Of a DNA stretch of 64,000 bases, positions 2,297 to 36,193 are shown in pieces. The DNA lies in the IMG/VR virus record IMGVR_UViG_3300044692_000034, positions 1-64,000 of that record. One strand, 5' to 3'. The notes under the pieces were generated by a model, which saw nothing but the letters and a program-made list of their open reading frames with translations, was not told the DNA's origin and did not search any database. Position 1 is the first letter of the stretch; each line of letters opens with the position of its first letter. The DNA comes from a virus. Position numbers and translations under genes: made by a program.

Positions 2297-2389
2297 CTAC
2301 CACTCGCCGTCCTCACCGGTGGGACGCGGAGCGGGCAGCTCGCGCACGACGGGCATTGCGAAGTTGGTGTGTGACTGTGTGGTGGGCAT
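2297..2389 (-). CDS. Leaderless microprotein (30 aa, MPTTQSHTNF...)
   Basis: Hand-translated; ATG 6 nt downstream of -10 TATGGT. Confidence 0.6.
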   Translation of the reverse strand: MPTTQSHTNFAMPVVRELPAPRPTGEDGEW

Positions 2390-2438
2390 AGAACGACCAT
2401 ACGCCTACGTCTTGGTCACGTCAAGGGTGTTTCGTTCG
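2390..2438 (-). promoter_or_regulatory. Family promoter TTGACG-17-TATGGT-6-ATG
   Basis: -35 at 2419-2424, -10 at 2396-2401, TGACC directly after -35, CGAAC 9 nt upstream. Confidence 0.85.
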
Positions 2439-2530
2439 TTTCTGATCGATGTGTCGGTACGCTGACAAACCGGCCGCCGGTGCATCCCCAGACACGGAGC
2501 GGCTACCGGATGAGCACATCCGACCCACAT

Positions 2531-2615
2531 GTGCAGTCCACGCGTCGTGCAGTCCACGCGTCGTGCAGTCCCGCAGTCGCAGTATCGCGCAGTCCTGCCA
2601 TCGCTGCGCAGTCCC
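2531..2615. repeat. Tandem GTGCAGTCCACGCGTC repeat (2.5 copies) plus further GCAGTC units
   Basis: 16-mers at 2531-2546 and 2547-2562, partial 2563-2571, more GCAGT(C) to ~2615. Confidence 0.85.
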
Positions 2616-2623
2616 GAGACGCA

Positions 2624-2650
2624 GAGAGCCCCGCCAAAAGCGGGGCTCTC
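2624..2650 (-). terminator. GC-rich hairpin, probable terminator
   Basis: Perfect 11-bp stem GAGAGCCCCGC/GCGGGGCTCTC downstream of ORF 2703-3056; no clear U-tract. Confidence 0.55.
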
Positions 2651-2702
2651 CACACCGTCAACGCATCGGTAGCAGCCAAGCGTCGGCCGCCACCCTAGCA
2701 GG

Positions 2703-3056
2703 CTAGTCGTTGAACACGCGCACGCGGATCGCGCCGTTGCGGTCCCTGTGGTCGGCGGGCAGCAGGTCCCACCACAGCAGGTCGCCGTCCCGCCTCTCCA
2801 CGTGCTCGACCACGTACGCCATCCGCGCCTGCGTGACCTGCGACACAAGCGTGAGGCCCTCGTCGCACGCATCGGCGTACACCTGCCCGAAGTCGCCCGG
2901 GAGGCTGCTGTGCTCGGTCACGAGCATCCGCTCCTCGGGCACCCACGTGAAGATCTCGCTGTTCGTGGCGAGCATCAGCGGGTACAGCAAGTTCGTGTTC
3001 TGGCGGGTACGGCGATTGCGGCGGGTACGTGCGCGGGTGGCGGTGGTGGCGGGCAT
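2703..3056 (-). CDS. Leaderless hypothetical protein (MPATTAT...)
   Basis: ORF track plus family promoter TTGCGC-17-TTGAAT. Confidence 0.8.
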   Translation of the reverse strand: MPATTATRARTRRNRRTRQNTNLLYPLMLATNSEIFTWVPEERMLVTEHSSLPGDFGQVYADACDEGLTLVSQVTQARMAYVVEHVERRDGDLLWWDLLPADHRDRNGAIRVRVFND

Positions 3057-3115
3057 ACGCGTATTCAACCGTGCGGGTGGGTTCAGCGCAACACGTAACG
3101 TTCGTACGGCGCGCC

Positions 3116-3262: not shown

Positions 3263-3264
3263 TG

Positions 3265-3720
3265 CTACAGGCCCAAGCCGTAGCTGCTCGCGTACATCAT
3301 CTCGCCGTACGCCTCGGTGCTCGCGGCAAGCTCGGCCTCCTCGTCGGTCTGGTCGACCTGCCACTCGGTGTGAACCAGCGGCTCCATCCCATTCCGGGCC
3401 GCGATCCACGTCGCCGTCTCGCGCGCATCGCGGCAGCACGACCCGGCGCACACGTACACGTAGGACTGCGTGTCGCGCATGTAGATGGCGCCGACGTGGC
3501 CTGAGCGGCGTCCGAGAGCGCGGAGTGCGTCACGGGCCGTCTCATGCATCCCGGTGTGCTCGTACTCGACGTGGTCGTGCGTCCAGCCGCATCCGCCGCA
3601 GTGCTCCGCTTGCGGCTTGACGTATCGGCGAGCGTTGTGGAGCATCGACGGCTCAGGGTCGCTTCCGCACGTGATGTGCGGCGTCGCGAACTCGGGCATG
3701 GTGGGCAGGTTGGTGGGCAT
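3265..3720 (-). CDS. Leaderless Cys/His-rich hypothetical protein (MPTNLPT...)
   Basis: Family promoter; CGGC and CAGSCC motifs. Confidence 0.8.
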   Translation of the reverse strand: MPTNLPTMPEFATPHITCGSDPEPSMLHNARRYVKPQAEHCGGCGWTHDHVEYEHTGMHETARDALRALGRRSGHVGAIYMRDTQSYVYVCAGSCCRDARETATWIAARNGMEPLVHTEWQVDQTDEEAELAASTEAYGEMMYASSYGLGL

Positions 3721-3768
3721 GCGCGAAGACTCTCGCACGAGCGCAGTCATTGCAAGTGACAACGTTCG
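3721..3768 (-). promoter_or_regulatory. Family promoter CGAAC-8-TTGCAA-17-GAGTCT-6-ATG
   Basis: Direct reading of the minus strand. Confidence 0.8.
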
Positions 3769-3929
3769 GAGGGCGGCCGGGTGGCGGAGGATGGGCCGCC
3801 ACCCGGCCGAGGGTCCGGATCTGCCCGCGAGGGACGCCAAGCCGTGCCGGGGTCGACGGAAGGCTAGGCGAGCCCCAATGTAGCGCATCCCGCAACCGAT
3901 GGCCGCATCGCCGGGCCTCGATGAGACGC

Positions 3930-3982: not shown

Positions 3983-4390
3983 CTACGCGTGCCCGTATAC
4001 GCGACGGTCCGCGTCCTCTGCGAGCCATTCCACGGACGCGTGCTTGTCCAGCAGCTCGTCGAGCGCCCGCGACCGCACGCTTTGGTCGTCGAGCCAGATG
4101 CGGTCTTCGTTGGACCACCAGCCGCGCGTCTCGTAATCCTCCGGGCCGGTCCGCTGGAACGATCGCACGAACGAGGCGTGCACCTCAACGCGGCCGGCGC
4201 TGATGCGCTGGTACACCTGCACGTGCTCCCGCTGCTCGACCCCCTGCGGGTCGTCGTGCGGGTAGTCCACCCGCACCCGCACAAGCAGCGCGTCGAGTAC
4301 GGGCGCGGGGGCGCGCAGCAGCACGAGCGGGGACACCTGCCACGTGTGCGCGAGGAGCGTGGCGGAGAGCGGAGCGGCTTTGGTGGGCAT
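3983..4390 (-). CDS. Leaderless hypothetical protein (MPTKAAP...)
   Basis: Family promoter with -10 TAGCAT. Confidence 0.8.
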   Translation of the reverse strand: MPTKAAPLSATLLAHTWQVSPLVLLRAPAPVLDALLVRVRVDYPHDDPQGVEQREHVQVYQRISAGRVEVHASFVRSFQRTGPEDYETRGWWSNEDRIWLDDQSVRSRALDELLDKHASVEWLAEDADRRVYGHA

Positions 4391-4443
4391 GCCGCGCATG
4401 CTACGCGCGCGGCACGGTCACGTCCAAAGCAGAGCGTTCGCGG

Positions 4444-5101: not shown

Positions 5102-5430
5102 CGCGAGGCCATCTTCCGGTTGCGGTACGCGCGACGGCGGGCGTCAGCGATGCGCTCGCGCCGCGCCCGCTCATCCATCTCCACCTTGCTCGGCCGCCAG
5201 AAGATGGCGCTCGCCAGCGCCATCATGCAGATACCGGCAGAGACCGGCCACGGAAGCCTCCCGAAGCTTTCGCTGATGAGCGCGGCGCCTCCGCCGCCCA
5301 TCAGCACAGCGAACAGGAGGATCACGCCGCCCTCGCCGCGAGCGCGGATCACCGCGTACCGGCCGATGGGCAGCGCCAGCCGCAGCAGCGTCACGCCCAC
5401 GATGATGTGCCACAGGTCGACGGCGAGCAT
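5098..5430 (-). CDS. 3-TM membrane protein
   Basis: MLAVDLWHIIVG...; TGATG overlap with upstream gene. Confidence 0.7.
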   Translation of the reverse strand: MLAVDLWHIIVGVTLLRLALPIGRYAVIRARGEGGVILLFAVLMGGGGAALISESFGRLPWPVSAGICMMALASAIFWRPSKVEMDERARRERIADARRRAYRNRKMASR

Positions 5431-6029
5431 CAGGCGGCCACCTTCTCGATCTGCTCGTTGATCTCCGTGAGCGGGATCGTGCCGTGGCAAAACTTCCCGT
5501 TCTCGCCGGACGGCGCGTTCGGCAGCGGCTCCCACGACCACACGATGTCCCTGACCCCGCACCGGATCGTCGTCTTCCCGTACAGGCCGTCGAGCGCTTC
5601 GCGGAGCAGCGAGTGTGCCGCCATCTTCTCGTCGTGCTGCCGCTTCGTCGCGTTCCACTTCGCGCGGTCGCCGGCGTCGGTGAGCGGCAGGATCATGCCG
5701 ACGTTCTCGACGCGGCAGAACTGCTCGCTGTCCGGCCCGAACGCGTTGAACTGCTTGTCGACGTGCGTGTACGCCAGCAGGGCGCCGCTGCCGAGGTTGG
5801 CATCCCGGACGCCGGTGAGCACCACGTTCAGGATGGTGTGGCCCGTGCCAGTGTCGGCCACGAACGCGACGGGCGCGCCCTTGAGCGCGTCCACGGCGAG
5901 CCGGAGGTGGCCGGGCGTCCATCGCGTGTACGCGCGCTCCGTCACGTTCTGGCAGAAGTCGCTCGGCACGAGCACGCAGCTCGTGAGCGCGGGAGTGATG
6001 GGTGAGCGGGTGCTCTCGGTGGTGGGCAT
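5430..6029 (-). CDS. Leaderless hypothetical protein (MPTTEST...)
   Basis: Promoter TTGCCC-17-TACTCT-6-ATG. Confidence 0.85.
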   Translation of the reverse strand: MPTTESTRSPITPALTSCVLVPSDFCQNVTERAYTRWTPGHLRLAVDALKGAPVAFVADTGTGHTILNVVLTGVRDANLGSGALLAYTHVDKQFNAFGPDSEQFCRVENVGMILPLTDAGDRAKWNATKRQHDEKMAAHSLLREALDGLYGKTTIRCGVRDIVWSWEPLPNAPSGENGKFCHGTIPLTEINEQIEKVAA

Positions 6030-6085
6030 GGTTGAAGAGTACGCGCGCTTGCCGGTCAGGGCAAGCGCACACTGTCGAGTCTTGG

Positions 6086-6529
6086 TCAGTTGGCGATCCG
6101 GCTGTACCCGGTGCGGTTGATGTGGACCGTGCCGTCGTCGGTGACGGTCATGATGGTCTGGTCCTTGCCGAGGGAGACGTCGGTGAACATCGGAGGGCGC
6201 TTGCCGGCGCGATGCGCGCGCTGCGCGAGGATCATGTACGCCTGCGCCTGCGCGTCGGTGATCCCGGACCATCCGTGACCGACGCACATGTACCAGTCGA
6301 CGCGGCCGTCGTGGCGGATGATGCCAACGAGGTCGTTCGCGCTCAGGGACGGCAGGTCGTACCCGGCGAGACCGAGGCGCGCGACGTCGTCGGCGGTCAC
6401 AACGTTGAAGTAGCGGAACACGTCCTCGAGGTCCTCGATGCCGTCGAGCGTGCTCGGGTACGCGCCTTGCCATCCGCGACCCGCCGAGACGACGAAGACG
6501 CACAGAGTCTGCTGTGTGGTGGTGGGCAT
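6086..6529 (-). CDS. Leaderless hypothetical protein (MPTTTQQ...), possible YodL-like domain
   Basis: Promoter TTGCAA-16-TATTCT; LEDVFRYFN...PSLSANDLV...WYMCVGHGW resembles the YodL-like pattern. Confidence 0.75.
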   Translation of the reverse strand: MPTTTQQTLCVFVVSAGRGWQGAYPSTLDGIEDLEDVFRYFNVVTADDVARLGLAGYDLPSLSANDLVGIIRHDGRVDWYMCVGHGWSGITDAQAQAYMILAQRAHRAGKRPPMFTDVSLGKDQTIMTVTDDGTVHINRTGYSRIAN

Positions 6530-6731
6530 GCTCGAAGAATAGCCGCGTGCGTAGTCATTGCAAGCGGTTACTTTCGCTGCGAGTCGAAGAACGAGATGCA
6601 CCCAATCGCCAACCCGCTGAGGGTCGCGGCCACACACACGAGCGCAAGCGAACGATGCATCACGCCAACCGCCCACACGGTGGATGTGACCATCCCGACG
6701 CATAGGCCAATGGCATACGCGGCGCTCCTGT

Positions 6732-7932: not shown

Positions 7933-8129
7933 GAGAGCACCGTGACCATCTGGATGCTGTAGCTGCACAGCACCTCGTCGGAGTCGTACGCGTCGAACTT
8001 GCCTTGCGCGTCCGGGGTGCTCGCGACGACGCACCCCTGCTCGAACTCGGTGTCGAACTCGCGTCCCGGGCGGATCTCGCTCGGCTGCACGCGCATCTCG
8101 ACGCGCAGCGGGCTAGTGGTAGTGGGCAT
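7929..8129 (-). CDS. Leaderless small beta-rich protein (MPTTTSP...)
   Basis: Family promoter. Confidence 0.8.
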   Translation of the reverse strand: MPTTTSPLRVEMRVQPSEIRPGREFDTEFEQGCVVASTPDAQGKFDAYDSDEVLCSYSIQMVTVLS

Positions 8130-8177
8130 ACTCGAAAGCTACGGCCTGAGCGCAGTCACCGCAAGCCGCAACGTTCA
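8130..8177 (-). promoter_or_regulatory. Family promoter TGAAC-8-TTGCGG-17-TAGCTT-6-ATG
   Basis: Direct reading. Confidence 0.85.
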
Positions 8178-8678
8178 GGTGAGCGGAACCCCGACATCGC
8201 CGACAGCGAGGTGCACGCGGCAGCCGTTGTGCCGAGGCGCCCATCCGCTGCTCGTGAGCATGCCGTCGAAGTCCTCGTCGGGCTGCCATGGTGCGACCAG
8301 CATGGCGTCACCGATGAGGACTTCGGTGCCGCCCTTGAACCGCATGTTCCGGATGGCGCGGCAGATGGTTGCGTCGTCGCCGGACATGTAGCCGATGTCG
8401 CATGCGCTTGCGCTCTCACGCAGCAGCAGGCGGCACACGTCGACATGCCCTTCGTCGAGGAGCTTGTTCGCCGACTCCTGTACGACAAGGCTTGCCGCGT
8501 CGAGCGCACGCAACTGGAAGATGCTCGGCGCACGCGTCGCACGCGTCGACTCGATGACGCCACCGGACGGGAGCTTTCGCGTCTCCGTCGCACCGAACTC
8601 GTAACGAGCCTCGTGCCGCGCAGCAGCAAGCCTCTGGATCTGCGACTCGAACGGCTCAGGGAGTACCACGACGATCAC
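8175..8678 (-). CDS. Hypothetical protein
   Basis: GTGA-coupled ORF. Confidence 0.6.
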   Translation of the reverse strand: MIVVVLPEPFESQIQRLAAARHEARYEFGATETRKLPSGGVIESTRATRAPSIFQLRALDAASLVVQESANKLLDEGHVDVCRLLLRESASACDIGYMSGDDATICRAIRNMRFKGGTEVLIGDAMLVAPWQPDEDFDGMLTSSGWAPRHNGCRVHLAVGDVGVPLT

Positions 8679-8992
8679 GCCCTTTCGGCCAGCATCGCGA
8701 TGTACGCCTCAGCGACGATGTCGGCGACGCCTGCGTGATTGAGGCCGTACACGTCGTCCTCGATCTCGACGCGCATCGTTTCCATGCCGTCCGGCAGGCG
8801 CTCGCGCAGCGCCGTCCGCACGCCATCGACCGACCGTGCCGTGAGTTCGGCCGCCCACGGCTTGCCGAAGGCATGGCCTGACTGGTGGACGGTGAACTGG
8901 CCGGCCGGGGTGAGCTTGACCGTGATGAGCGGCGAGTCGGGGCGCGTACCGATGCGCGCCTGGTGCTCGAAGGTTGCTGTGGTGGTGGGCAT
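8675..8992 (-). CDS. Leaderless hypothetical protein (MPTTTAT...)
   Basis: TTGCGC-16-TAGTCT-7-ATG. Confidence 0.8.
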   Translation of the reverse strand: MPTTTATFEHQARIGTRPDSPLITVKLTPAGQFTVHQSGHAFGKPWAAELTARSVDGVRTALRERLPDGMETMRVEIEDDVYGLNHAGVADIVAEAYIAMLAERA

Positions 8993-9275
8993 GCTCGAAA
9001 GACTACCGCCGAGCACGGTCGGCGCAAGTACGTCCTGTCACGCCTTGGCAGGGTGTGGCACCCCGGCACGAACACGCCAATCGAACATGAACACGGAAAC
9101 GCACACGCGTTCCACTTGCGACGCCTCATCGAATGATGGGGAATGCGCAGCGGCGTACACGAAGTCGGAGATCCCCATGACGATGTACGACGCAAGCGGG
9201 ATCCGCTCCCACGCGTCCCTGTCCAGGTCGGGGTGCCCTACCGCATACGGCACCACATGACGCGGCATGTCGCCG

Positions 9276-9542
9276 CTAGACACGCGCAACGCCGCAGCGG
9301 TCGCACGTGTGCCCGGCCCGCACGAGGTGCGTGCACGACACCGGGTCGGTGCTCGGCTCCACGATTCGCTTCACGTACCACGAATGCGAGCCGAACCAGT
9401 CGGTCCCGTACGGGGCCTGCTGCATCAGCCACGAGCGCCAGAAACGCGGCTTGCTCGGCCGCTGCACGACCAGCTCCGTCCCGTCGGCGAGCGTGACGCC
9501 CATCTCGACGGGGCCTGTGGTGGACGACTTGGTGGCGGGCAT
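9276..9542 (-). CDS. Leaderless protein with C-terminal Zn-binding motif (MPATKS...)
   Basis: TTGCAT-17-TAGGTT-7-ATG; CTH...CDRC. Confidence 0.75.
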   Translation of the reverse strand: MPATKSSTTGPVEMGVTLADGTELVVQRPSKPRFWRSWLMQQAPYGTDWFGSHSWYVKRIVEPSTDPVSCTHLVRAGHTCDRCGVARV

Positions 9543-9767
9543 GCGTCGAAACCTATACGCCTTGTCGGGTCAATGCAAGGCGTTTTGTTCGCCAGTGTCA
9601 GGACGCAGCACGGACATCGCCTTCGCGCACGAACGTGGTGTACGACCACTTCGGTGCGCGATCGGCGAGCGCGTCCTTGACCATCTCGACGGCATGCGCC
9701 TCTGGATGGTCGACTTGCGTCGCCACAGACACACGGACGATGACCTCGACGACGTGGTCGTTGGCCA

Positions 9768-10058
9768 TCAGTAGTGCTCCACGCGGACGCCGCCGCGCGG
9801 CCCCATCGAGAGCTGCCGGTCTGGGTACGGGTCGCCGTGCACGTCCTCGGACGTCGGGTCGTAGAAGTACACGTTCCACGTCGTCGTCTCGTCCGCCATC
9901 TCGTGCGGGTCCTCGCAGTACCGCCAAAACGCGTCCTTCGCGCGCTTGAGCGAGGAGTGCTCCGTCACATCGCGCGGGTCGCGCGGGTCGCCGGGAGTGT
10001 GGTTGTAGTCACCGTTCGGCACGGTCCAGACCGGGCCACGGTGAGAAGGACGGGGCAT
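9768..10058 (-). CDS. Leaderless hypothetical protein (MPRPSH...)
   Basis: Family promoter; ends YPDRQLSMGPRGGVRVE. Confidence 0.8.
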   Translation of the reverse strand: MPRPSHRGPVWTVPNGDYNHTPGDPRDPRDVTEHSSLKRAKDAFWRYCEDPHEMADETTTWNVYFYDPTSEDVHGDPYPDRQLSMGPRGGVRVEHY

Positions 10059-10108
10059 GAAAAGAAGACTACGGGGCTACGGCAGTCACCGCAACCCCGT
10101 AACGTTCA
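10059..10108 (-). promoter_or_regulatory. Family promoter TGAAC-9-TTGCGG-17-TAGTCT-7-ATG
   Basis: Direct reading. Confidence 0.85.
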
Positions 10109-10450
10109 GTCGGTCGCGACGTGCGCGCTCTGCTTCTCCGTCGTACGCAGGACAACGATGAGAGCAGCGATGTACGCCTCACGGGCCGGGTCCACATCAC
10201 ACCACTCACCCGTCTCCTCATCCTGGACCGGTGCGGTCTGCGGCAGGACCCATTCCCACCGCACATCCGTGATCCGCCGCACGAGATGGCCGCGATAGAA
10301 CGCGTACGTGTACTGGTGCCCGTCGTGCGTGTGCGTGACGGTGTTGGCCTCTCCGTCGGAGATTTCGAGGGCGTACATGAGCGGAATGCGTTCGCCGTCG
10401 CGAGGCTTCTTGACGTGATACGTGTCGATGACTGGCTTGCTGGTGGGCAT
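10106..10450 (-). CDS. Leaderless hypothetical protein (MPTSKP...)
   Basis: TTGCCT-17-TAGATT-7-ATG. Confidence 0.8.
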   Translation of the reverse strand: MPTSKPVIDTYHVKKPRDGERIPLMYALEISDGEANTVTHTHDGHQYTYAFYRGHLVRRITDVRWEWVLPQTAPVQDEETGEWCDVDPAREAYIAALIVVLRTTEKQSAHVATD

Positions 10451-10477
10451 GCTCAGAAATCTACCACCATGCCAAGG

Positions 10478-10936
10478 TCAAGGCAACGCGTAGCGTTCGC
10501 GGGAGCGCTCAAACCCGAGCGGCGTCTTCCCGGCAATGTCTACGGCAGGGCACGCCATGAACTCAGCCGGCAGCATCGCTTCCTCTCCGTGCGCGAGCGG
10601 CGTTCGCAAATGGAACACCGCATCGCCGAAGTCCAGCCGCTCCAGCATCGCGTCACCGACCCCGTAAAGCAGAGTCTCAGCCGCGCGCTCAAGTACCCGC
10701 CGCTCAGCTCGACCCAGCCGTGAGAGCGGCACCGGGCCTGTACTGGCGTCCAATAGAGCTACCGAGGCGTGCCACACGGGCCGCCCACCGAACGCGTCCA
10801 GTCAGCGGTTGACGGTGAGGATGCTGGAGAGCAACAACCCACGCCGCGACGGTACGATCTCCCGGAAGCGCGGATGCATGGTGTCATCCGCGAGCTGGCA
10901 CGGGTGCTCGAACGCAGCCCGCTGCCGAGGCGTCAT
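10478..10936 (-). pseudogene. Hypothetical gene interrupted by a single in-frame TGA (10802-10804)
   Basis: ATG 10936 overlaps upstream stop; frame reads ...ILTVNR*LDAFGGRPVWHASV... to 10478. Confidence 0.55.
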
Positions 10937-11982: not shown

Positions 11983-12305
11983 GACTGCTCCTCGAGGATG
12001 CGGGCGACCATGGCGAGCTTCTCCGGCGTGACGTTGAACCAGTGCGTCTTGCCGTTGCCGATCGCCTGCATGTGGAAGAAGCCGGTCCCCGGGATGGGGC
12101 CGCGCTCCAGCAGGTCGGTGATCATGCCGGTGGCATAGCCTTGGCCGAGCGGCGCGGTAGCCGGGTCGTTCCCGCTGAGCCTGTCGTACGCGTCCTGGTA
12201 CCGGCCGACTGTACCCGGGTCGAGGTACTCGGTGTCGTTCTCCAGGACGTATCCGAGCGCTTCGGTTGCCGTGTTCAGGGCGTCGGTGTAGGTGGTGGTG
12301 GGCAT
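11979..12305 (-). CDS. Leaderless hypothetical protein (MPTTTYT...)
   Basis: TAGACG-17-TAGTCT-7-ATG. Confidence 0.8.
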   Translation of the reverse strand: MPTTTYTDALNTATEALGYVLENDTEYLDPGTVGRYQDAYDRLSGNDPATAPLGQGYATGMITDLLERGPIPGTGFFHMQAIGNGKTHWFNVTPEKLAMVARILEEQS

Positions 12306-12338
12306 AACAAGAAGACTACGTGCCGTGTGCGGTCGCGT

Positions 12339-12915: not shown

Positions 12916-12966
12916 ACGACAGACACTACGGGCCGCGAAGCATCTCTGCAACGCGGCCCGTTCAGT

Positions 12967-13413: not shown

Positions 13414-13442
13414 GGACGGGCCGCTGATCAGGCGGCCCGTCC
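13414..13442 (-). terminator. Hairpin, probable terminator
   Basis: GGACGGGCCGC/GCGGCCCGTCC 11-bp stem. Confidence 0.5.
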
Positions 13443-14087: not shown

Positions 14088-14097
14088 GGTGAAAAGA

Positions 14098-23687: not shown

Positions 23688-23752
23688 ACCCACCAACGTA
23701 TGCGCCACGCCACATCCGGGCAAGGGCTAGTGTTCAGACACCGACAAGGCTT

Positions 23753-25973: not shown

Positions 25974-26005
25974 GCAAGAAAGACTACGCAGCCGGCACAA
26001 TCAAT

Positions 26006-26236
26006 TCAACGTATTAGTTTCGTTACACGCTTCACAAGCTCTTCGACCTGGCCGCGTCGAATCTTGTACAGCTTGAGCCCCGCGACCTCGTCCCCCTGGA
26101 CGATCCACGACTCGACAGGAAACGCGTTGTGATACTCACTCGTCGCACCGTACGCGGCCGCAAGGATCACGCACGCCGGCCGCATCTCCTCGACGTTGAA
26201 CATGATGTAACCCTCGTCGGGCAGTTCCCTCTTCAT
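26006..26236 (-). CDS. Hypothetical protein, paralog of 23941-24171
   Basis: See paralog. Confidence 0.8.
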   Translation of the reverse strand: MKRELPDEGYIMFNVEEMRPACVILAAAYGATSEYHNAFPVESWIVQGDEVAGLKLYKIRRGQVEELVKRVTKLIR

Positions 26237-26926: not shown

Positions 26927-27364
26927 TCATCTACCTGGCCGCTTCTGGTATTCGAAGCAAGTTCCATCAGGGAACTTGCTCAACGCTCTCCCGACGACCT
27001 CTCCTGCGCCGCGATTCTCAGAAGAGTTGACGTATCGAACATCGGCTCCACTGCCACCCTCCCGCGACGCAGCGATCGGGTACTCATCACGGTCGTACCC
27101 GTGCTTGGTGGGGATACCTTTGAGCGACTCCGACCGGTGCAGGTCTGCGTCGCCTCGGTCGATGTGCATGCGCCGTGGTTCGCCCTTGTCGATGGCGTCC
27201 CACGCATGGCCGAGGATGTGCGGGTACTTCGTGTAGCTCAGGTTGACGACGACGCAGTGTTCCTGTTTCGCCGGCGACGCGGTTACCGGCTTTGTGCTCG
27301 GCTTGTCATGCCAGAAGAACAACGCGACGAGCACGACCGCGATGAACGCGTATGGTGATGCCAT
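26927..27364 (-). CDS. NucA/NucB-family secreted deoxyribonuclease
   Basis: Signal anchor; YPHILGH, DRDEYPIA, GGSGADVRYVNSSENRGAG. Confidence 0.9.
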   Translation of the reverse strand: MASPYAFIAVVLVALFFWHDKPSTKPVTASPAKQEHCVVVNLSYTKYPHILGHAWDAIDKGEPRRMHIDRGDADLHRSESLKGIPTKHGYDRDEYPIAASREGGSGADVRYVNSSENRGAGEVVGRALSKFPDGTCFEYQKRPGR

Positions 27365-27631
27365 GCGCCCGCGCACTAATGCACCGTCACAAGATGCATC
27401 GCGACGACAAAGCACCACGGCAGGCACACCATGACGACAACGATCGCCGCCACGACGAGCATCAGCGTCCTAGGCGGGATGCTCACGCCTGCCGCCGCTG
27501 CCAGTAGTAGTACGCCCAGCAGAACATGACAAACAACCACGCGAGGGTGCACACGGCCGCGAGGTACCAGATGCGGTTTCCGTACACGTACAGCGTGAGC
27601 GCGATGAACGCGACACGCCAGAGCCACAGGC

Positions 27632-27961
27632 TCATGCGACGTACTCCTCGGCGCGCATCGCGGCTTCCTCCATCTCGCGCTCCTGCACGAGCATGCTCGC
27701 GTACCGGGCCGGGTCGACCTGCTCCGTGAACTCCCAGTCCTCCACGATGTACAGCAGCTCCGCGTCGCCGTCGACGCGTTCGATGAGCCACTGGTTCTGC
27801 CACACGTACGCGCTCGGTTCGTACCGCTCGTACTCGACGACGTCGAACAGGCCGGTGATGCAGCATTCGCCGGCGGCGTGGAGGTCGGCGTGCTGTTCGT
27901 CGGAGACAACGGATGCGACGCAGCCGAGGAGGTAGACACGTTGTGGCATGGGGGTGGGCAT
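27632..27961 (-). CDS. Leaderless hypothetical protein (MPTPMPQ...)
   Basis: Family promoter. Confidence 0.8.
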   Translation of the reverse strand: MPTPMPQRVYLLGCVASVVSDEQHADLHAAGECCITGLFDVVEYERYEPSAYVWQNQWLIERVDGDAELLYIVEDWEFTEQVDPARYASMLVQEREMEEAAMRAEEYVA

Positions 27962-27997
27962 GCTCCGAAGACTACGGGCCGCTAGCGGTCAACGCAA
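27962..27997 (-). promoter_or_regulatory. Family promoter TTGCGT-17-TAGTCT-7-ATG
   Basis: -35 at 27992-27997, -10 at 27969-27974. Confidence 0.85.
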
Positions 27998-28021
27998 GCG
28001 GCCCGTGTCAGGTTGCGGACG

Positions 28022-28486: not shown

Positions 28487-28797
28487 GTGACTGTGGCTTT
28501 CTGTTCTTCGAGTTGTGACCGTGCGGTGGCGAGCGAGACCGCGTACCCGCTACCGAGCCGGCCGGGAAACTCCTGCTCCATGAACACGTACTCCCCGAGC
28601 ACGTCCTCGAGCTTGGCGCCGATGGCCTTGAGGTACGCGGGCAGGTCCACGTCCTCCTCGAGGTAGACCATGCCGCGAGCGCGATCGACGTAGCTGAAGT
28701 CACTCACAGTCACGCCGGAGACGAAGACGTCAACGGCGCGGACCTCCAACCATGCGTGACTGGGGTCGTTGATGAGGCGTAGGTGCGCGGTGGGCAT
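28483..28797 (-). CDS. Leaderless conserved phage hypothetical (MPTAHL...)
   Basis: DPSHAWL...FSY...VYLEEDVD; TTGACG-16-TAGTCT-7-ATG. Confidence 0.8.
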   Translation of the reverse strand: MPTAHLRLINDPSHAWLEVRAVDVFVSGVTVSDFSYVDRARGMVYLEEDVDLPAYLKAIGAKLEDVLGEYVFMEQEFPGRLGSGYAVSLATARSQLEEQKATVT

Positions 28798-29247
28798 GCG
28801 CAACAGACTACGCACGCTTACGGTCGCGTCAACAATGTCTCATCGCGCAGCATCAGCGCGAGCAGCCTACGGGACGGCGTGAGCCGCTGCACACGAGTAC
28901 TCGCCCCCGGCGGGAGCATGTACCCGCCGCACATGTGCGCGTCCAACGGGCGCGGCGCTCGCACACCACCCCGGTAGTAGGACACCACCAGATAGCCACG
29001 GTGCGGCACCCCGCGCGGGTCGAGCGGGTAGCAACGGCAGTTCCGTCCCATGAGCGCCACCCCATTGACAGTGCCAGCCGCACGTCATCTCCGCAAGACG
29101 CGCGTGGCCCCGGACCTGAGGTTGCCCACCACCGGGTCCGGGGCCACGTCGAGGAGGTTCAGGTCGCCGGAACCTCGCTGTCTCGCTGGCGTTACTGCTC
29201 CACAAGCGTAGCGGCTGCCAGCGCGTCACGCCACTCGCCGCATGTCG

Positions 29248-31314: not shown

Positions 31315-32061
31315 CTACTTGTCCTTCTTGGCGTTGCGGCGCGCGTCACGGCACGCGCGGCACTCCGTCGACCGGGCGCCACCGTTCGTCGTCGGGAACT
31401 TCGTGACGGGCTTCGTCTCCCCGCACGGGCCGGTGCAGGTCATCTCGCCGTCCTTGCTGGCCGCTCCCGGGCGCGGCTCCGCCTGCTTCCGCTTGGCGCG
31501 GCTCGTCGTGCCGCGCGGCACGAACCCGTCGCCGTTCACCGACGGAGCGGAGATGAGCCGCGTGTGCTGGCACGCGGCCAACGCCGCGACGAACTTGACG
31601 TCCACCTTGCGGCCTCGGTCGCGCTCCCCGTCGTCGTCGCTCTCGTCGCCTTCCAGGTAGGCGGTCAGCGCCTCCTCGTACTCGCGGCATGCCTTCTCCT
31701 CGAGGGCCTTGGCGTCGGCGAGCTGCTGCTCAGCCGGCGACAGCGCCTTGCCCTGCTCGGCGGGGAAGTGCACGCACGGGAAGACCTTGAAGTCCTGCCG
31801 GTACGTGTCCATCTCCGACGACTCCGGGTCGTACTCGAAGTCGCTCGGCGGGTACGTGGCCAGCACGACCTCGTCGAACTCGTGCGCGAGCATGGTCATC
31901 GGGAACTCGGCGATGTACGGCAGCCGGCGCGTGTCGGGGCATGCCGTAGCGTGCACGTGGAACGTCTCGCCCGGCACGGGCAGGTTCGGGCCGTACACGT
32001 CAACGCTTACGGTGGCGCGCTCTGTGGTGGTGTCCGGCGCGGCGGTGGTGGGCGTACTCAT
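31315..32061 (-). CDS. Leaderless protein with C-terminal Zn ribbon, paralog family member 2
   Basis: CTGPCGETKPVTKFPT...ECRACRDARR; TTGCCT-17-TAGTCT-7-ATG. Confidence 0.85.
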   Translation of the reverse strand: MSTPTTAAPDTTTERATVSVDVYGPNLPVPGETFHVHATACPDTRRLPYIAEFPMTMLAHEFDEVVLATYPPSDFEYDPESSEMDTYRQDFKVFPCVHFPAEQGKALSPAEQQLADAKALEEKACREYEEALTAYLEGDESDDDGERDRGRKVDVKFVAALAACQHTRLISAPSVNGDGFVPRGTTSRAKRKQAEPRPGAASKDGEMTCTGPCGETKPVTKFPTTNGGARSTECRACRDARRNAKKDK

Positions 32062-32100
32062 AGACAGAAGACTAGTGCAGGGTGGGCCGCAAGGCAAGCA

Positions 32101-32394
32101 CTAAAGTTCAGGGTCGTAGCCGGTTATCTCTCTCAGCAGCCGCACACCCTCGCCGCCCTTGTACACCGACCAGCACCCCCGCTTCACCTCGACGGTCGCT
32201 TGGTGCTCATCGTGCAACCGGCGCAGCAGCGACCGCGTCACCGACAGCGACAGGCCGCACTCGTTTGCGACCTGCCGAACCGTCGAGTAGCCACGCCCGT
32301 GCCTGTACCAGCCATCCGACCGCCCTTGCAGACGGATGGTTGTCGCCAGCGCAACAAGAACCGCACGCTCGCGCTCACTCAGCGAGGTGGGCAT
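32101..32394 (-). CDS. Winged-HTH protein
   Basis: STVRQVANECGLSLSVTRSLLRRL. Confidence 0.7.
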   Translation of the reverse strand: MPTSLSERERAVLVALATTIRLQGRSDGWYRHGRGYSTVRQVANECGLSLSVTRSLLRRLHDEHQATVEVKRGCWSVYKGGEGVRLLREITGYDPEL

Positions 32395-32665: not shown

Positions 32666-32940
32666 TTCACGAGGCCCCACACGATGTCCATGGCGCGGAC
32701 GGGATCCATCTTGGCGAGCTTGTCGCGGTTCTTCTCGTTGAGCTTGTCGGCGACGGCGACGAGCGCCTGCGCGGAGACGGCGTCGATGAGCACGCCCTTG
32801 TACCGCCGCGCGCTGTGCGCCGCAACGATCTCCCTGCACGTGCTCACGAGATCTCCCTGCTGCCGCTCCTCGATCATGCCAAGCCAGAGCGCGAGGTCCG
32901 GGTCGTAGTCGGGTGACGTCTCGTCGAGTAGCGGGTTCAT
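32662..32940 (-). CDS. Phage hypothetical protein
   Basis: IDAVSAQALVAVADKLNEKNRDKL helical motif. Confidence 0.65.
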   Translation of the reverse strand: MNPLLDETSPDYDPDLALWLGMIEERQQGDLVSTCREIVAAHSARRYKGVLIDAVSAQALVAVADKLNEKNRDKLAKMDPVRAMDIVWGLVK

Positions 32941-33719
32941 GCCGGCACCTCCTGCTTGCCGTGGTCGCGGATAAACGCCTTGGCGCGTGCGTTGCTGCAC
33001 CAGTACGGCACCTTTTCGCCGGCGCCACCATGCGTCCGGCAGTACCCGTGATGGTCGAAGTCGCACATCTCGTCGTCGACATGCTCCGCGAGAAGGTTCG
33101 CGGCTTCTTCGACGGCATGCGCCAGGTCGTGATCCTCTTCGACGGCGAGCACCCACGTCACCCGGCCGCCGGCCATCGTCCGCAAGTTGAACGTCACGGA
33201 CCGGTCTCCCTCGAACTGGAAGTAGACGACGTCATAGTCGCGGCCCTTGAGGTCGGGGTCGGACATATGGTGGTGGCCGACGTGCCCGTCCCTCTCCTTC
33301 ATGTAGCGTCGCACGTCCTCGTTGTCGCGTAGGCTCGTGTCGATGGACCACACGCCGTACGTGGTGCCGGCCATGATGTGGACCCACGGGCGGCCGTCGG
33401 AGAGCGACTTGGTGCTTATGCGGATGCCGCCGTCGCGGGCGCCGTCCGTCCAGTTGCCGGGGCCGTCCTTGAAGTGCTCGCTCGCACGGACCTCGGGTCG
33501 CAGCAGATCCAGGTTCTCGTTGACGGCGACCCACGTGTATCGCTTGCCGACGAACATGCTGCGCAACCGCGCGTACACGAACGGTGCGTTGACGAGGGTC
33601 AGGTAGCCGTACGCGGACCAGGCGTTGACTCGCCGCTGCTCGCGGCGTTCGTAGTCTTGTGCGGCGAACAGGCGGGGCGCGGCGCGGCGAGCACGAGCGG
33701 CGTCATTGGTGGTGGGCAT
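32937..33719 (-). CDS. Leaderless hypothetical protein (MPTTNDA...)
   Basis: TTGCCA-17-CATTCT-6-ATG; C-terminal CDFDHHGYCRTH. Confidence 0.8.
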   Translation of the reverse strand: MPTTNDAARARRAAPRLFAAQDYERREQRRVNAWSAYGYLTLVNAPFVYARLRSMFVGKRYTWVAVNENLDLLRPEVRASEHFKDGPGNWTDGARDGGIRISTKSLSDGRPWVHIMAGTTYGVWSIDTSLRDNEDVRRYMKERDGHVGHHHMSDPDLKGRDYDVVYFQFEGDRSVTFNLRTMAGGRVTWVLAVEEDHDLAHAVEEAANLLAEHVDDEMCDFDHHGYCRTHGGAGEKVPYWCSNARAKAFIRDHGKQEVPA

Positions 33720-33773
33720 GTTGACAGAATGGCGTGCGGTTGCCATCGTGGCAAGCGAGACGTGCCGTACGGG

Positions 33774-34124
33774 CTAGCTGCCGAACGCCTTGCCGATGGC
33801 GTCGGCTGCACTCCCCGGCTGCGGCACGATGACACCGAAGACCTGGCCAACACGAAGGACGAGCAGCTTCTCTTCGTGCACGTCGACGTAGGCGCCGGCG
33901 TTCGCAGGGAACACGACGTGATCGCCGACCTTGACGGGCATCTCGATGTCGTGCTGTCCCCACCAGTCGAGGCCGGGGCCTGCTGCGAGCACGATGCCGT
34001 GATGCGGCGGCATCTGCGCCTCGTAGCGGTTGGCGGGGAGCACGAGGCCGCTCTCGCGGACCTCCTCTCGCTCCAATTCTTTCACGACCAGGTAGTCGAA
34101 GATCGGTTGTAGCTGGTCGGGCAT
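33774..34124 (-). CDS. groES: GroES-like co-chaperonin
   Basis: LQPIFDYLVV...SGLVLP...VLAAGPG...VKVGDHVVF. Confidence 0.9.
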   Translation of the reverse strand: MPDQLQPIFDYLVVKELEREEVRESGLVLPANRYEAQMPPHHGIVLAAGPGLDWWGQHDIEMPVKVGDHVVFPANAGAYVDVHEEKLLVLRVGQVFGVIVPQPGSAADAIGKAFGS

Positions 34125-34547
34125 TAGATCCACCCCGTGGCGCCGGCCTCGACCCACGGGCCGGTGTCGTCCCACTCCCAGATGCCGTCCGTGTCGATGG
34201 TTCCGACGTCGCCGTTGTCGCACTCGTACCTGATCGTCAGGTCGTGCGGGTCGAAGCGCCACGTGACGATCGGTGAGGTCTCGTTGATCTCGGCGAACGC
34301 ACGCTGCTGCTCTGCGCTGGGTTCCATCAGTGAACCGCGATCCCTTCTGAGTTCAGTTCGGCGAGGCGAGCTTGCAGCGCCAGCGTGGCGTACGCGTTCC
34401 CCATGGTCGCGTACACGGCGCCGTTCTCGGGGTAGACGGCGCGTTTGTCGTCGGCGAGCCGCAGGCATGCCCGCGCCCGCGACTCGAAGTAGTCAGCGCT
34501 CGCGTCGCTGGTGTCTTCGTCGGTGAGTAGCGCGTCCAGGTGCATGG

Positions 34548-35234
34548 TTAGGACTCCTGCTGGGGGGCGCTGTCCCCGCCGGCCCACGCCGGGTCGTTGC
34601 GCAGCTCCTCGCGGCTGTACATGCGCCAGTTGTAGTCGAACAGGTGGTTGTGGGAGTTGCCGTCGAGGTTGTACTTATTCGGCGACACGCTCACCTTGAA
34701 GAAGGAGCGCATGCCGCCGGGGTCCGGGATGATCGGCGTGCAGTGGATGACGCTCGGGTCGAGCCGGTAGATCGTGTTGGCGTCGCCGTCCATGACCCTG
34801 ATCTTGTTGTCGCCTCGCATGGCGGAGAGTCGGATCTGCTGCTCGAACTGGTGGGCCGACTCCACGTGGTCCTTGCTGATGTCGTCGAACTGCCCGACGG
34901 CGAACCTTGTGGGCCACTGGTCGGCCCAGATGTAGTTGATGTCGTCGCTGCCGAAGCCGTCGGCGTGCCAGCCGGGACGGTTGAGCGGGTTGCCGGGCGT
35001 CGCAAACCCGCGCTTGGCGGTCACGTACACGTAGTGCCCGTCGTTGACGCCCTCCGCCCACACGATCCCCTCGATCGTGTTGCGCATGAACTCCAGGCTC
35101 GGTGGCAGGAGGATCACGTCGCTGTGCGCCATGACGACCGGTAGGTACAGCCACGTGCAGAACTCGCGCCACTCCGGCAGCAGGTGGTCGCGGTCGTAGA
35201 TCCCCGGGTGCTGCCCGTATTTGTAGTCGGTCAT
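34548..35234 (-). CDS. Putative 2OG-Fe(II) dioxygenase-fold protein
   Basis: RPGWHADG (HxD), distal IH, RSFFKV; TGATG/ATGA coupling. Confidence 0.7.
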   Translation of the reverse strand: MTDYKYGQHPGIYDRDHLLPEWREFCTWLYLPVVMAHSDVILLPPSLEFMRNTIEGIVWAEGVNDGHYVYVTAKRGFATPGNPLNRPGWHADGFGSDDINYIWADQWPTRFAVGQFDDISKDHVESAHQFEQQIRLSAMRGDNKIRVMDGDANTIYRLDPSVIHCTPIIPDPGGMRSFFKVSVSPNKYNLDGNSHNHLFDYNWRMYSREELRNDPAWAGGDSAPQQES

Positions 35235-35632
35235 TGTTTCTTCGCGAAGAGCGTGTTGTATTCGAAGATGATGTCGGCTGTGCCGTAAGTGCCTTCCATG
35301 TACGACGCAGGGTCCACGCTCATCTCTTCGCACAAGTCGACGTATGTGGCTGACTTGATGCGCAGCTCGCGGCCTTCCTCTGTCGTCACCATGCCCTCGC
35401 CCTCTGCGGTGAGGTCGACGTGGTACGTGTCCCATGCGTACCTGAGCGCGTCGATCTTGTCCCACGCGAACGCTCGGCGCTCGCGGTCGAGCCACAGCAG
35501 CTCATTGTCACCGTACACACCGCACGAGCACGTCGCGCCCTCGTCTCCCTCGGTGGGGTGGCTGTGCCGGTAGGAGCATGACGGCTCGTGCTCCGCCTTC
35601 GGCTGCTTCGCGCATTCGACGACCCACGGCAT
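35231..35632 (-). CDS. Hypothetical protein
   Basis: HEPSC...CSCG. Confidence 0.65.
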   Translation of the reverse strand: MPWVVECAKQPKAEHEPSCSYRHSHPTEGDEGATCSCGVYGDNELLWLDRERRAFAWDKIDALRYAWDTYHVDLTAEGEGMVTTEEGRELRIKSATYVDLCEEMSVDPASYMEGTYGTADIIFEYNTLFAKKQ

Positions 35633-36117
35633 CAGGGCACCACCGGCCCCGGTTCGACGTCTTCTTCTTTTTGGGTCGCCCAGTCTTCAGATGTGTCTTC
35701 GCGTAGTTCGTTGACGTAGCCCTGCCACGTGTCCTCGGGGAGAGACACGCTCTCCTCGCCGACGACGATGCTGACGTACCAGCGGCCTTGCACATCCCAC
35801 CGGCGCGCTGTCCGTACGTCACCGGCGCCGACGCCGATGGTGTAGGTGCGGCCGGGGTACCAGCGGCCGGCGCCGATGCAGAAGTCGGTTGCGGCCATGC
35901 GGATCGCTTGCCGCAGCGAGTCGCAGTGGTAATCGGTCGGCGACAGCGACTGCTCGCCTTCGGACTCCCATGCGCTGTGGATGCTGATGCGCCACACGTA
36001 GTCGCTGATGCCGTCCTGTGCGATGAGGAGCGCCTCTTTCAGGCGGGCGAGTTGCGCCGCCGTGCGGGCCGCTTTCTTGCTCAAATCGTTGAGCACGTAC
36101 TCGTCGAGCGTTGGCAC
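35632..36117 (-). CDS. Hypothetical protein (GTG start, MPTLDEY...)
   Basis: TAGTG overlap with uORF 36117-36143. Confidence 0.7.
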   Translation of the reverse strand: MPTLDEYVLNDLSKKAARTAAQLARLKEALLIAQDGISDYVWRISIHSAWESEGEQSLSPTDYHCDSLRQAIRMAATDFCIGAGRWYPGRTYTIGVGAGDVRTARRWDVQGRWYVSIVVGEESVSLPEDTWQGYVNELREDTSEDWATQKEEDVEPGPVVP

Positions 36118-36143
36118 TAGGACTCCCGGTACATGGTGGGCAT
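36117..36143 (-). CDS. Leaderless uORF MPTMYRES
   Basis: CGAAC-8-TTGTGC-16-TATCCT-8-ATG. Confidence 0.5.
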   Translation of the reverse strand: MPTMYRES

Positions 36144-36193
36144 TGGCGCCGAGGATACCCGCAGGCACCCTCGGCACAAGGCAGAGCGTTCGG

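Follow-up and report, generated by a model that had tools for sequence, protein, structure and literature searches.

A repeated promoter module abutting the start codons of 29 gene groups in a high-GC soil phage, probably a portable leaderless start signal

Why do 29 gene groups of one phage, headed by unrelated proteins, share both a promoter and their first codons? This question is raised by an uncultured soil phage with a 141.7-kb (~142 kb), 96%-complete genome of 65% GC; searches of INPHARED, IMG/VR, JGI metagenomes and GTDB genomes returned no close relative of it. The window is the whole stretch analyzed, the first 64,000 nucleotides of IMG/VR record IMGVR_UViG_3300044692_000034. Genes were called with a home-made codon log-odds method, and some small genes were missed.

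We identified 29 modules of ~60 bases, which lie on the minus strand between 2.3 and 36.2 kb and each abut the start codon of a gene group. A strict regular expression (TTGNNN, 16-18 nt, TANNNT, 5-9 nt, ATG) gave 24 minus-strand matches in this interval, none on the plus strand and one weak match in the other 105 kb. Block-wise scans added copies at 3056, 3720, 12305, 15825 and 33719, bringing the total to 29. The fixed-spacing consensus with up to 3 mismatches was matched 11 times, versus 0.00 times in 100 dinucleotide shuffles, and a weight matrix built from the module copies found nothing further at 12 bits or above on either strand of the whole genome. No full module lies outside the 2.3-36.2 kb array in the 141.7-kb genome. 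The combination of the -10 element and ATGCCCACC occurs 12 times in 34 kb, compared with at most 3 times per genome in 401 sampled Actinomycetota genomes. An earlier note had described 29 units with a common promoter architecture, 27/29 beginning Met-Pro and 22/29 beginning MPT; all three counts were reproduced exactly, and the full-genome motif search with shuffle control that it had proposed places full modules only in the array and gives zero in shuffles. The features are as follows.

2297-36193, minus strand: array of 29 promoter and putative leaderless-start modules heading ~84 called small genes
2378-2439, minus: module, ATG 2389; 30-codon mini-ORF, next ORF 5 nt past its stop; unusual -10 spacing
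3045-3106, minus: module, ATG 3056 (MPA); weak -10 TTGAAT
3709-3770, minus: module, ATG 3720; head is a 151-aa ORFan
4379-4440, minus: module, ATG 4390; 135-aa head
6018-6079, minus: module, ATG 6029; strong hairpin (z -3.5), 199-aa head
6518-6579, minus: module, ATG 6529; 147-aa head, moderate hairpin
8118-8179, minus: module, ATG 8129; strong hairpin (z -3.5)
8981-9042, minus: module, ATG 8992
9531-9592, minus: module, ATG 9542 (MPA); hairpin (z -2.8)
10047-10108, minus: module, ATG 10058 (MPR); hairpin (z -5.6), then a T-rich run
10439-10500, minus: module, ATG 10450
12294-12355, minus: module, ATG 12305; -35 is TAGA
12904-12965, minus: module, ATG 12915; 10-bp stem (z -5.4)
14076-14137, minus: module, ATG 14087
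15814-15875, minus: module, ATG 15825 (MPA); 11-codon mini-ORF overlapping the start of a 147-aa gene
16433-16494, minus: module, ATG 16444; 187-aa head
17513-17574, minus: module, ATG 17524; hairpin (z -4.5), 178-aa head
18124-18185, minus: module, ATG 18135; 186-aa head
19672-19733, minus: module, ATG 19683; 46-aa head
21649-21710, minus: module, ATG 21660; head gene 21343-21660 encodes a MarR-like winged-helix protein that may be a regulator
22404-22465, minus: module, ATG 22415; 41-codon ORF, negative coding score
23069-23130, minus: module, ATG 23080
23676-23737, minus: degenerate module, ATG 23687 (MST); weak -10
25962-26023, minus: module, ATG 25973 (MPA)
27950-28011, minus: module, ATG 27961; perfect consensus, 10-bp stem (z -6.3)
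28786-28847, minus: module, ATG 28797
32050-32111, minus: module, ATG 32061; begins MSTPTT, CCCACC run two codons later
33708-33769, minus: degenerate module, ATG 33719 (MPT), nine codons inside the first call of gene 32937-33746; -10 is CATTCT
36132-36193, minus: the array's first module, ATG 36143; 8-codon mini-ORF
61260-61309, minus: leadered promoter of the same class outside the array; upstream box, TTGC, TGACC, TANNNT -10
63955-64000, minus: related promoter without ATGCCCACC; it reads TTGCGG, 16 nt and TACTCT, and a GCGAC box lies upstream where the window ends

Each module reads YGAAC, TTGC (-35), YGAC, a 16-17-bp spacer, TAGTCT (-10), 6-7 nt and ATGCCCACC(AC). The information profile peaks at GA(A)C, TTGC, YGAC, TAG..T, the C at -1 and ATGCCCACCAC. 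TANNNT occupies -13 to -8 (T -13 in 20/26, A -12 in 19/26, T -8 in 21/26), C stands at -1 in 17/26 modules and A at +1 in 26/26, and the 6-7 nt ahead of the ATG form a pyrimidine-rich discriminator without a Shine-Dalgarno core. In M. smegmatis, mapped start sites show ANNNT between -13 and -6, a purine at +1 and enrichment of C at -1, and 24% of transcripts are leaderless (PMC6448022). Judged by sequence, the module geometry matches mapped actinobacterial SigA leaderless promoters in its TANNNT ~7 nt from the ATG, its C at -1, its A at +1 and its lack of a Shine-Dalgarno sequence, and this evidence supports a sigma-70/SigA-type promoter directly at the ATG, where a promoter had been proposed. 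We found no match to Sigma70_r2 or WhiB in the 96%-complete genome; none to a T7-type RNA polymerase was found either, a weak result as the control for that family matched nothing anywhere. One small region-4-like HTH ORF adjoins the terminase, and divergent factors may have escaped these searches. The repeats are probably read by the host housekeeping (SigA/sigma-70-type) RNA polymerase, and the YGAAC/YGAC boxes beside the -35 probably serve as contact sites for a regulator or the alpha subunit of the polymerase. From the geometry, transcription most likely begins on the A of the ATG, so that the first gene of each unit would be translated from a leaderless mRNA.

We found that 24 of the 29 module ATGs start a reading frame that spans 45 codons or more and has a positive coding score, compared with 39% of all same-strand ATGs in the array. 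All scored heads start with ATG, versus 58% of other genes, and the gap from the upstream stop to the ATG is mostly 32-60 nt. The absence of a Shine-Dalgarno sequence reported earlier is borne out, since 24/27 scored heads lack any 4-mer match, whereas 111/179 other genes have one. The genes within a unit are joined by -4/-1 overlaps, as expected from the coupled small genes described behind each module; with these overlaps and their own Shine-Dalgarno sequences, the later genes would be translated by coupling. All-against-all BLASTP showed the head proteins to be mutually unrelated, as had been claimed. No reliable Pfam family was found for 20/21 head proteins scanned, and the 178-aa head of module 17524 has no homologue among 5.8 billion proteins.

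The fixed sequence continues into the genes. Codon 2 is CCC in 23/25 heads and CCG in none, whereas proline is encoded genome-wide by CCG in 62% and by CCC in 21.5% of cases; codon 3 is ACC in 19/23 threonine codons, compared with ACG at 54% genome-wide. We know of no tested bacterium in which CCC is favourable as codon 2. Four modules retain ATGCCCACC while heading only mini-ORFs of 8-41 codons, whose coding score is none or negative. In module 36143, the stop of the 8-codon mini-ORF overlaps a GTG at which a 161-aa gene starts, and the Shine-Dalgarno sequence of that gene lies within the mini-ORF; the stop of the 41-codon ORF of module 22415 overlaps the start of the winged-helix gene 21880-22293, which has its own Shine-Dalgarno sequence. 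Homologues elsewhere lack the MPT extension, a check that had been proposed: a 46%-identical homologue of the 199-aa head of module 6029 begins MSANN, and homologues of the 186-aa head of module 18135, located within operons, begin MINSN or MIESN. Two homologues from other phages match the heads in N-terminal length yet lack MPT, and one of the two belongs to an operon and has no promoter of its own, which fits grafting. The two same-class leadered promoters with a Shine-Dalgarno sequence lack the CCCACC run; the one at 61260-61309 has a ~33-nt leader and a strong Shine-Dalgarno sequence before gene 60789-61226, with no ATGCCCACC at +1. On these sequence grounds, the conservation of the first codons acts on nucleotides. 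Reaching past the ATG, the module sets the first three codons in DNA, and unrelated proteins therefore start Met-Pro-Thr. Codon bias, mini-ORFs and MPT-less homologues likewise fit the promoter and 5'-end plug on diverse ORFs suggested earlier, and place it at the level of nucleotides.

The predicted 5' ends are also distinctive. G content in heads is 6.6% at +4 to +12 and 19% at +13 to +24, compared with 29% in other genes. Taking as baseline the starts of leadered or internal genes, which are not mRNA 5' ends, the first 40 nt fold with a mean energy of -4.3 kcal/mol in heads versus -9.1 kcal/mol in other genes (P = 9e-9), and the unpaired probability of the first 12 nt is 0.75 versus 0.50 (P = 4e-8). 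Efficient leaderless initiation is defined by start-codon accessibility, zero leader and AUG (PMC8459731), and leaderless translation is enhanced by CA repeats just past the start (PMC9031893). The G-poor and, in folding models, unstructured 5' ends fit an enhancer of leaderless translation.

Taken together, we regard it as probable that these are SigA-read promoters starting on the A of the ATG, with ATGCCCACC(AC) enhancing leaderless initiation, in one portable unit. ATGCCCACC(AC) would give a G-poor, C/A-rich, unstructured 5' end acting as a built-in enhancer of leaderless (70S) initiation, and Met-Pro-Thr on unrelated proteins would be its side effect. The module may then serve as a portable transcription and translation start for accessory, mostly ORFan, genes, which are probably expressed early, as promoter type and ORFan content suggest. 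A stronger version is tentative, and we rate it somewhat below an even chance: a single portable element, made of promoter, start codon and the coding landing pad AUGCCCACC(AC), would be required for efficient leaderless initiation or class-wide control and be transplanted whole onto incoming genes. If true, the transplanted unit overwrites the first three or four codons and imposes a common N-terminus on unrelated proteins, and it would be a natural host-tuned expression part bridging transcription and translation.

Modules may also be shuffled through motif microhomology. In each of two module pairs, both members agree at 15-17 of the 24 variable positions, far above expectation; 27961 and 17524 agree at 17/24. 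These shared positions are the only internal hint of motif-mediated shuffling.

We consider it unlikely, though the strongest competing explanation, that the conserved +1 to +11 stretch acts on DNA or transcription, either by tuning promoter escape as an initial-transcribed sequence or by serving as an operator for a phage regulator switching the class; it could form one extended binding site with the YGAAC/YGAC boxes. The nucleotide-level conservation is compatible with this, as are the fixed extra boxes on either side of the -35, the two winged-helix genes in mid-array and the persistence of the stretch at modules whose ATG opens just a mini-ORF, the real gene having a Shine-Dalgarno sequence of its own. 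The stretch is nevertheless absent from the same-class leadered promoters (only two copies), it shows no dyad or repeat symmetry to the upstream boxes, and G depletion and low predicted structure reach ~+24, beyond any compact operator.

Alternatively, the 5'-terminal AUGCCCACC(AC) could be an RNA operator through which a phage post-transcriptional regulator, a RegA-like repressor or a nuclease, shuts the class off together. T4 RegA, a repressor binding around the AUG of many early mRNAs, provides a precedent, and one 5' RNA sequence is common to ~25 unrelated messages. We hold this to be improbable: no candidate RNA-binding regulator was identified, and ribosome access explains the data equally.

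Hairpins around the -35 occur in about one third of the modules. Compared with shuffles, 10/27 modules show excess folding (z < -1.5), and 17 have no significant hairpin. The arms covary, differing in sequence while complementarity is kept, and the invariant -35/-10 positions fall in loops or outside stems. The stem sequence of module 12915 is also present in stand-alone hairpins at other places in the genome. Three module hairpins were called terminator-like, and in module 10058 the hairpin and T-rich run together give a terminator-like look; overall, terminator-like sites are not above chance (6 found versus 7.5 expected). The sequence evidence supports the promoter abutting the ATG, the missing Shine-Dalgarno sequence and the plug of the earlier interpretation, but its self-contained cassettes are not supported, because most modules have no terminator and only ~10 carry a strong hairpin. 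With a co-directional array of mostly terminator-less modules, read-through between units is likely. Where present, the hairpin probably ends the transcript arriving from upstream or makes it more stable, as PeSLs do in T4. That the repeats are nothing but RNA processing or termination hairpins in a long polycistronic transcript, with an incidental resemblance to -35 and -10, is very improbable. The excess folding in 10/27 modules, the compensating arms and the terminator-like calls would suit such hairpins; the 17 modules without one, the absence of any Rfam match and the invariance of hexamer positions at 16-17-bp spacing, in loops or outside stems, would not.

Slightly less probable still is selection of Met-Pro-Thr(-Thr) in the protein, as an N-terminal tag for processing, stability, secretion or packaging. 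MP in 27/29 and MPT in 22/29 could suggest such a tag, but it is largely refuted by codon choice opposed to genome usage (CCC and ACC, not CCG and ACG), by retention of the stretch on 8-41-codon ORFs and by homologues without MPT. An integron-like array with the repeats as recombination sites has almost no chance of being correct. Small unidirectional ORFan cassettes split by a conserved, partly palindromic ~60-bp repeat are reminiscent of one, but the repeat is a well-formed promoter without paired inverse-core and core boxes, and no tyrosine or serine recombinase (PF00589, PF00239) was matched in the genome, so that the defining integrase is missing.

Among the known systems closest to the probable leaderless start module is the PeSL ("promoter-early stem-loop") of T4-type phages (Arbiol et al. 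2010, PMC2839356; Comeau et al. 2014, PMC4122927). Both comprise many sigma-70-type promoter copies in short gaps between small ORFan genes of a variable region, with a comparatively A/T-rich stretch upstream of the -35, GC-rich stem-loops (GGG..CCC type) between or across -35 and -10, and a conserved unit reaching the start codon. The earlier analogy to PeSLs is apt, and better than first thought, because a third of the modules carry a stem-loop. Unlike PeSLs, the modules lack a Shine-Dalgarno sequence, place the start codon at +1, are conserved into codons 2-4 and have the stem-loop in only ~1/3 of copies rather than in each unit; they belong to a high-GC phage that is not established as T4-like. 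For PeSLs, experiments demonstrated that they act as promoters and terminators and recombine with one another (PMC2839356, PMC4122927), whereas the modules are known from sequence alone.

Actinobacterial and actinophage leaderless promoters are individual rather than stereotyped, in contrast to the 29 copies here of one extended 60-nt unit, which has additional boxes and in which codons 2-4 are fixed. Those of M. smegmatis have no -35 consensus and no fixed codons (PMC6448022), and a few leaderless mRNAs were predicted from SigA-like promoters in the Cluster O mycobacteriophages PL1, PR2 and PL2 (PMC4351075). Like the SAS/ESAS of Cluster K mycobacteriophages and Cluster EF Microbacterium phages, the module is an asymmetric repeat in one orientation, confined to a non-structural genome part, absent from host genomes and tied to the start codons (mostly ATG) of unrelated genes. 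The SAS is a 13-bp motif with a Shine-Dalgarno core 3-7 bp upstream of the start (PMC3203893, PMC7302621), and thus serves leadered translation. Unlike the SAS, the module lacks a Shine-Dalgarno sequence, includes the promoter and continues into the ORF.

To our knowledge, the middle/late leaderless promoters of Thermus phage phiYS40 have no -35 element. As summarized in PMC3594737, phiYS40 makes leaderless mRNAs for a whole gene class, the middle/late one, from a shared promoter type. Leaderless expression of a whole class from a shared promoter type is also predicted for our phage. The Thermus phage shifts host IF2/IF3 levels, and that summary does not report fixed downstream codons.

Apart from an AUG at the 5' terminus, the lack of a leader and accessibility of the 5' end, the determinants of efficient leaderless translation are poorly defined. 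Here, one solution is repeated ~25 times on unrelated genes of a 65% GC genome, against the genome's codon preference, and the array points to a specific downstream determinant, a C/A-rich, G-free stretch of ~10-20 nt. In low-GC T4-type phages, the idea of repeated promoter cassettes that act as plugs for expression and possibly as linkers for recombination is established; the array extends it to a large high-GC soil phage, in a form needing no ribosome-binding site. The module, probably a portable signal that starts both transcription and translation free of a ribosome-binding site, is also a candidate compact expression part for Actinobacteria.

The repeated module of this phage, a unit of about 60 nt that joins a promoter, an ATG and fixed first codons, is confined to the array in which it was first seen. 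The strict pattern gave 24 minus-strand matches at 2.3-36.2 kb, no plus-strand match and 1 weak match in the other 105 kb, and a fixed-spacing consensus with up to three mismatches gave 11 matches, compared with 0.00 in shuffles. Block-wise scans brought the module total to 29, and a weight matrix run on both strands (at least 12 bits) found no further copies. Over these 29 modules we recovered exactly the numbers reported in the earlier note (27/29 starting with Met-Pro and 22/29 with MPT). Its observation is thus confirmed, and its interpretation, that of leaderless, self-contained cassettes shuffled through the motif, is supported in part. The information content of the module alignment peaks at six places:

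GA(A)C box, 9-12 nt 5' of the -35
TTGC, the -35 element
YGAC(C), directly 3' of the -35
TAG..T, the -10 element, commonest form TAGTCT, preceded by a 16-17-bp spacer
T at -7 and C at -1
ATGCCCACCAC at +1 to +11, followed by a G- and T-poor run to about +20

Counted from the A of the ATG, the -10 spans -13 to -8. In the start-site map of M. smegmatis, ANNNT lies between -13 and -6, with TANNNT on stronger promoters, purines prevail at +1, position -1 is enriched in C, and leaderless transcripts make up 24% (PMC6448022). The module geometry agrees with this map position by position, and the A of the ATG is therefore the predicted transcription start. Two other assignments were rejected. An ECF-sigma reading (GAAC as the -35, with a CGT-type -10) places the boxes about 29 nt apart in the alignment, not 16-17, and TGACC as an alternative -35 would leave only a ~12-bp spacer to the -10.

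A genome scan for Sigma70 region 2, WhiB and single-subunit polymerases gave no match, the control for the single-subunit family being uninformative; the host holoenzyme is thus the default candidate for reading these promoters. The only match was to Sigma70 region 4_2 (29 bits), in a small minus-strand ORF at 42629-43003 directly 3' of the large terminase. This helix-turn-helix ORF is less likely to encode a sigma factor than an HTH regulator or a small terminase subunit. The YGAAC and YGAC boxes could possibly be contacted by a regulator, and two winged-helix genes lie in the middle of the array (21343-21660 and 21880-22293). Alternatively, they may be bound by the polymerase alpha subunit; the 3-4 nt 3' of GAAC are comparatively A/T-rich.

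In 24/29 cases the module ATG begins a frame that is 45 codons or longer and has a positive coding score, compared with 39% for all same-strand ATGs. ATG is the start of all scored heads (the first genes of the units) but of 58% of other genes. As the earlier note had stated, heads lack a Shine-Dalgarno sequence (no 4-mer match in 24/27), while most other genes have one; the genes behind them are coupled, with 4- or 1-nt overlaps with the preceding gene, and the heads show no similarity to one another. Taken together, these features indicate that the module ATG is in all likelihood a real start codon.

Almost all heads are without a Pfam family. The few recognisable array genes, which are typical accessory genes, comprise a YdjM-like membrane protein, the two winged-helix proteins and three others found among the array ORFans:

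33774-34133, minus, GroES (Cpn10)
26927-27376, minus, NucA/NucB-type DNase
18978-19340, minus, MazG pyrophosphohydrolase

Three proteins have in common a C-terminal domain of ~55-90 aa (37-50% identity). One of them is a module head, and one has a weak, sub-threshold Stc1 zinc-finger-like match:

31315-32061, minus
36815-37504, minus
743-1333, minus

The last is the one called gene in window 1-2300, where ~960 nt without a confident gene call adjoin the last module. The first 2 kb have 73% GC, compared with ~65% elsewhere.

In the shared first codons it is the nucleotide sequence, and not the protein, that is conserved. Genome-wide, Pro is encoded by CCG (62%) and CCC (21.5%), but 23/25 heads have CCC as codon 2 and none has CCG; similarly, codon 3 is ACC in 19/23 Thr codons, whereas genome-wide Thr is 54% ACG. 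Furthermore, four modules head mere ORFs of 8, 11, 30 and 41 codons and keep the first-codon stretch. These ORFs abut or overlap a real gene, and at least two of the real genes are preceded by a Shine-Dalgarno sequence of their own.

Whether homologues elsewhere lack the MPT extension could be answered for two heads, whose homologues begin without it. Specifically, a 46%-identical homologue of head 5430-6029 has an N-terminus of equal length with five different first residues:

L021:9930-10003, Logan contig SRR20614910_1570, 70% GC, homologue of head 5430-6029

It is preceded by its own generic TTGACA, 16 nt, GATACT, 6 nt and ATG. Since this promoter is leaderless-looking, leaderless expression of the gene may predate the stereotyped module. 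Homologues of a second head, operon-internal in their contigs, have M-I-N-S-N or M-I-E-S-N at the place of the initial M-P-T-T-E of this phage. No homologue was found for a third head.

The G content of the heads is 6.6% at +4 to +12 and 19% at +13 to +24, compared with ~29% in other genes. Over the first 40 nt, the mean folding energy is -4.3 kcal/mol for heads versus -9.1 kcal/mol for other genes (P = 9e-9), and the unpaired probability of the first 12 nt is 0.75 versus 0.50 (P = 4e-8). In Caulobacter reporters, the efficiency of leaderless translation is set jointly by start-codon accessibility, zero leader and AUG identity (PMC8459731), and in E. coli it is enhanced by CA repeats right after the start codon (reviewed in PMC9031893). 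The main rival explanation is that the stretch acts at the transcription level or as an operator. Same-class promoters outside the array, at ~61.26 kb and 63.96 kb, lack the stretch and their transcripts are predicted to be leadered; these two cases suggest that the stretch accompanies leaderless translation, not promoter function. Because the heads are G-poor with little predicted structure, and because of this literature and the leadered promoters, a translation-level role is favoured.

Ten of the 27 modules folded do so far better than dinucleotide shuffles (z -1.5 to -6.3), and the mean z over modules is -1.3 versus +0.1 for controls. Where hairpin arms are matched, one lies just 5' of TTGC and the other just 5' of the -10; arm sequences vary from module to module, so the conservation is structural and not one of sequence. 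Such a structure is missing from the other 17 modules. Three modules are terminator-like by consensus scan, and the overall number of terminator-like sites does not exceed chance. Since 17 modules are without structure and terminator-like sites are at chance, the units are not generally insulated, and the description of the cassettes as self-contained did not hold. Some modules appear to be composite terminator/promoter elements. A universal covarying stem at the -35 was rejected: fixed-register pairing was weakly above permutation, and a free-register test and folding find the stem real only in about one third of modules. Rfam gave no match in window 1-40000.

A GGGCCGC / GCGGCCC stem encloses the -35 of modules 12915 and 27961 (named by their ATG coordinates). 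It also occurs in tight stand-alone GC hairpins:

window 13414-13442, both strands
genome ~88.48 kb
genome ~102.11 kb

In module 12915, the expected place of the YGAC box is taken by AGAGATGC, the loop sequence of the hairpin at 102.11 kb, which suggests that this module is a terminator hairpin fused with a promoter.

Two module pairs have 17/24 and 15/24 variable positions in common (mean 7.7, SD 2.3), with unrelated flanks. This likeness is the trace expected from copying of the module alone, and is weak evidence for it. The sole array paralogue pair is alike only within the gene and is uninformative on duplication boundaries. No integrase or resolvase was found in the genome, which argues against an integron.

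The virus record is 141,737 bp long, linear according to IMG/VR and 96% complete by CheckV estimate; its GC is ~65% and nearly all genes are on the minus strand. Among 50,697 records of cultured phages there were no DNA matches, near or distant, and the helicase has just 43% identity to Arthrobacter phage helicases. The terminase and a 228-aa array protein retrieved no useful relatives from IMG/VR. A 313-aa neighbour gene is common in other phages, yet with different layouts and without such an array. The window also holds two genes that may together form a module for RNA repair or quality control:

57050-57838, minus, RlaP-type nucleotidyltransferase (RNA repair pathway, polymerase beta family)
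62038-63792, minus, nearby Ro60 (TROVE + vWA)

No second array was found when IMG/VR, JGI metagenomes and 185,579 species genomes (GTDB) were scanned for the exact pattern. Matches were single, chance-like and in unrelated low-GC contigs, the sole exception being a conserved Streptomycetaceae gene. Its locus has a TTG..CGAC..TACGCT promoter, 7 nt and then a ATGCCCACC start, and is a cellular case, confined to one locus, of this leaderless arrangement:

L031:5014-5057 and L033:946-989, copies on Streptomyces sp. and Wenjunlia tyrosinilytica chromosomes

The combination of -10 and ATGCCCACC occurs 12 times in 34 kb of this phage. A host-wide signature was rejected, as none of 401 evenly sampled Actinomycetota genomes has more than 3 copies of TANNNT-N7-ATGCCCACC (the unpublished G122 and G176 count only toward this upper bound).

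Among the papers found by our literature search, none describes a repeated promoter that sets the first codons of numerous unrelated genes. A few leaderless promoters are predicted in Cluster O mycobacteriophages (PMC4351075), and a whole class of leaderless transcripts is reported for Thermus phage phiYS40 (PMC3594737). The start-associated sequences of actinophages are tied to start codons, but include a Shine-Dalgarno sequence (PMC3203893, PMC7302621). The nearest described system is the promoter-early stem-loop (PeSL) of T4-type phages, in which repeated sigma-70 early promoters tied to ORFans have an A/T-rich 5' part and a GC stem-loop whose register varies; by experiment, PeSLs have promoter and terminator activity and recombine with one another (PMC2839356, PMC4122927). 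The architecture is common to both. The array departs from PeSLs in that not all of its units carry a stem-loop and in that it lacks the Shine-Dalgarno sequence, whereas the predicted +1 on the ATG and the fixed codons 2-4 are features of the array that go beyond PeSLs.
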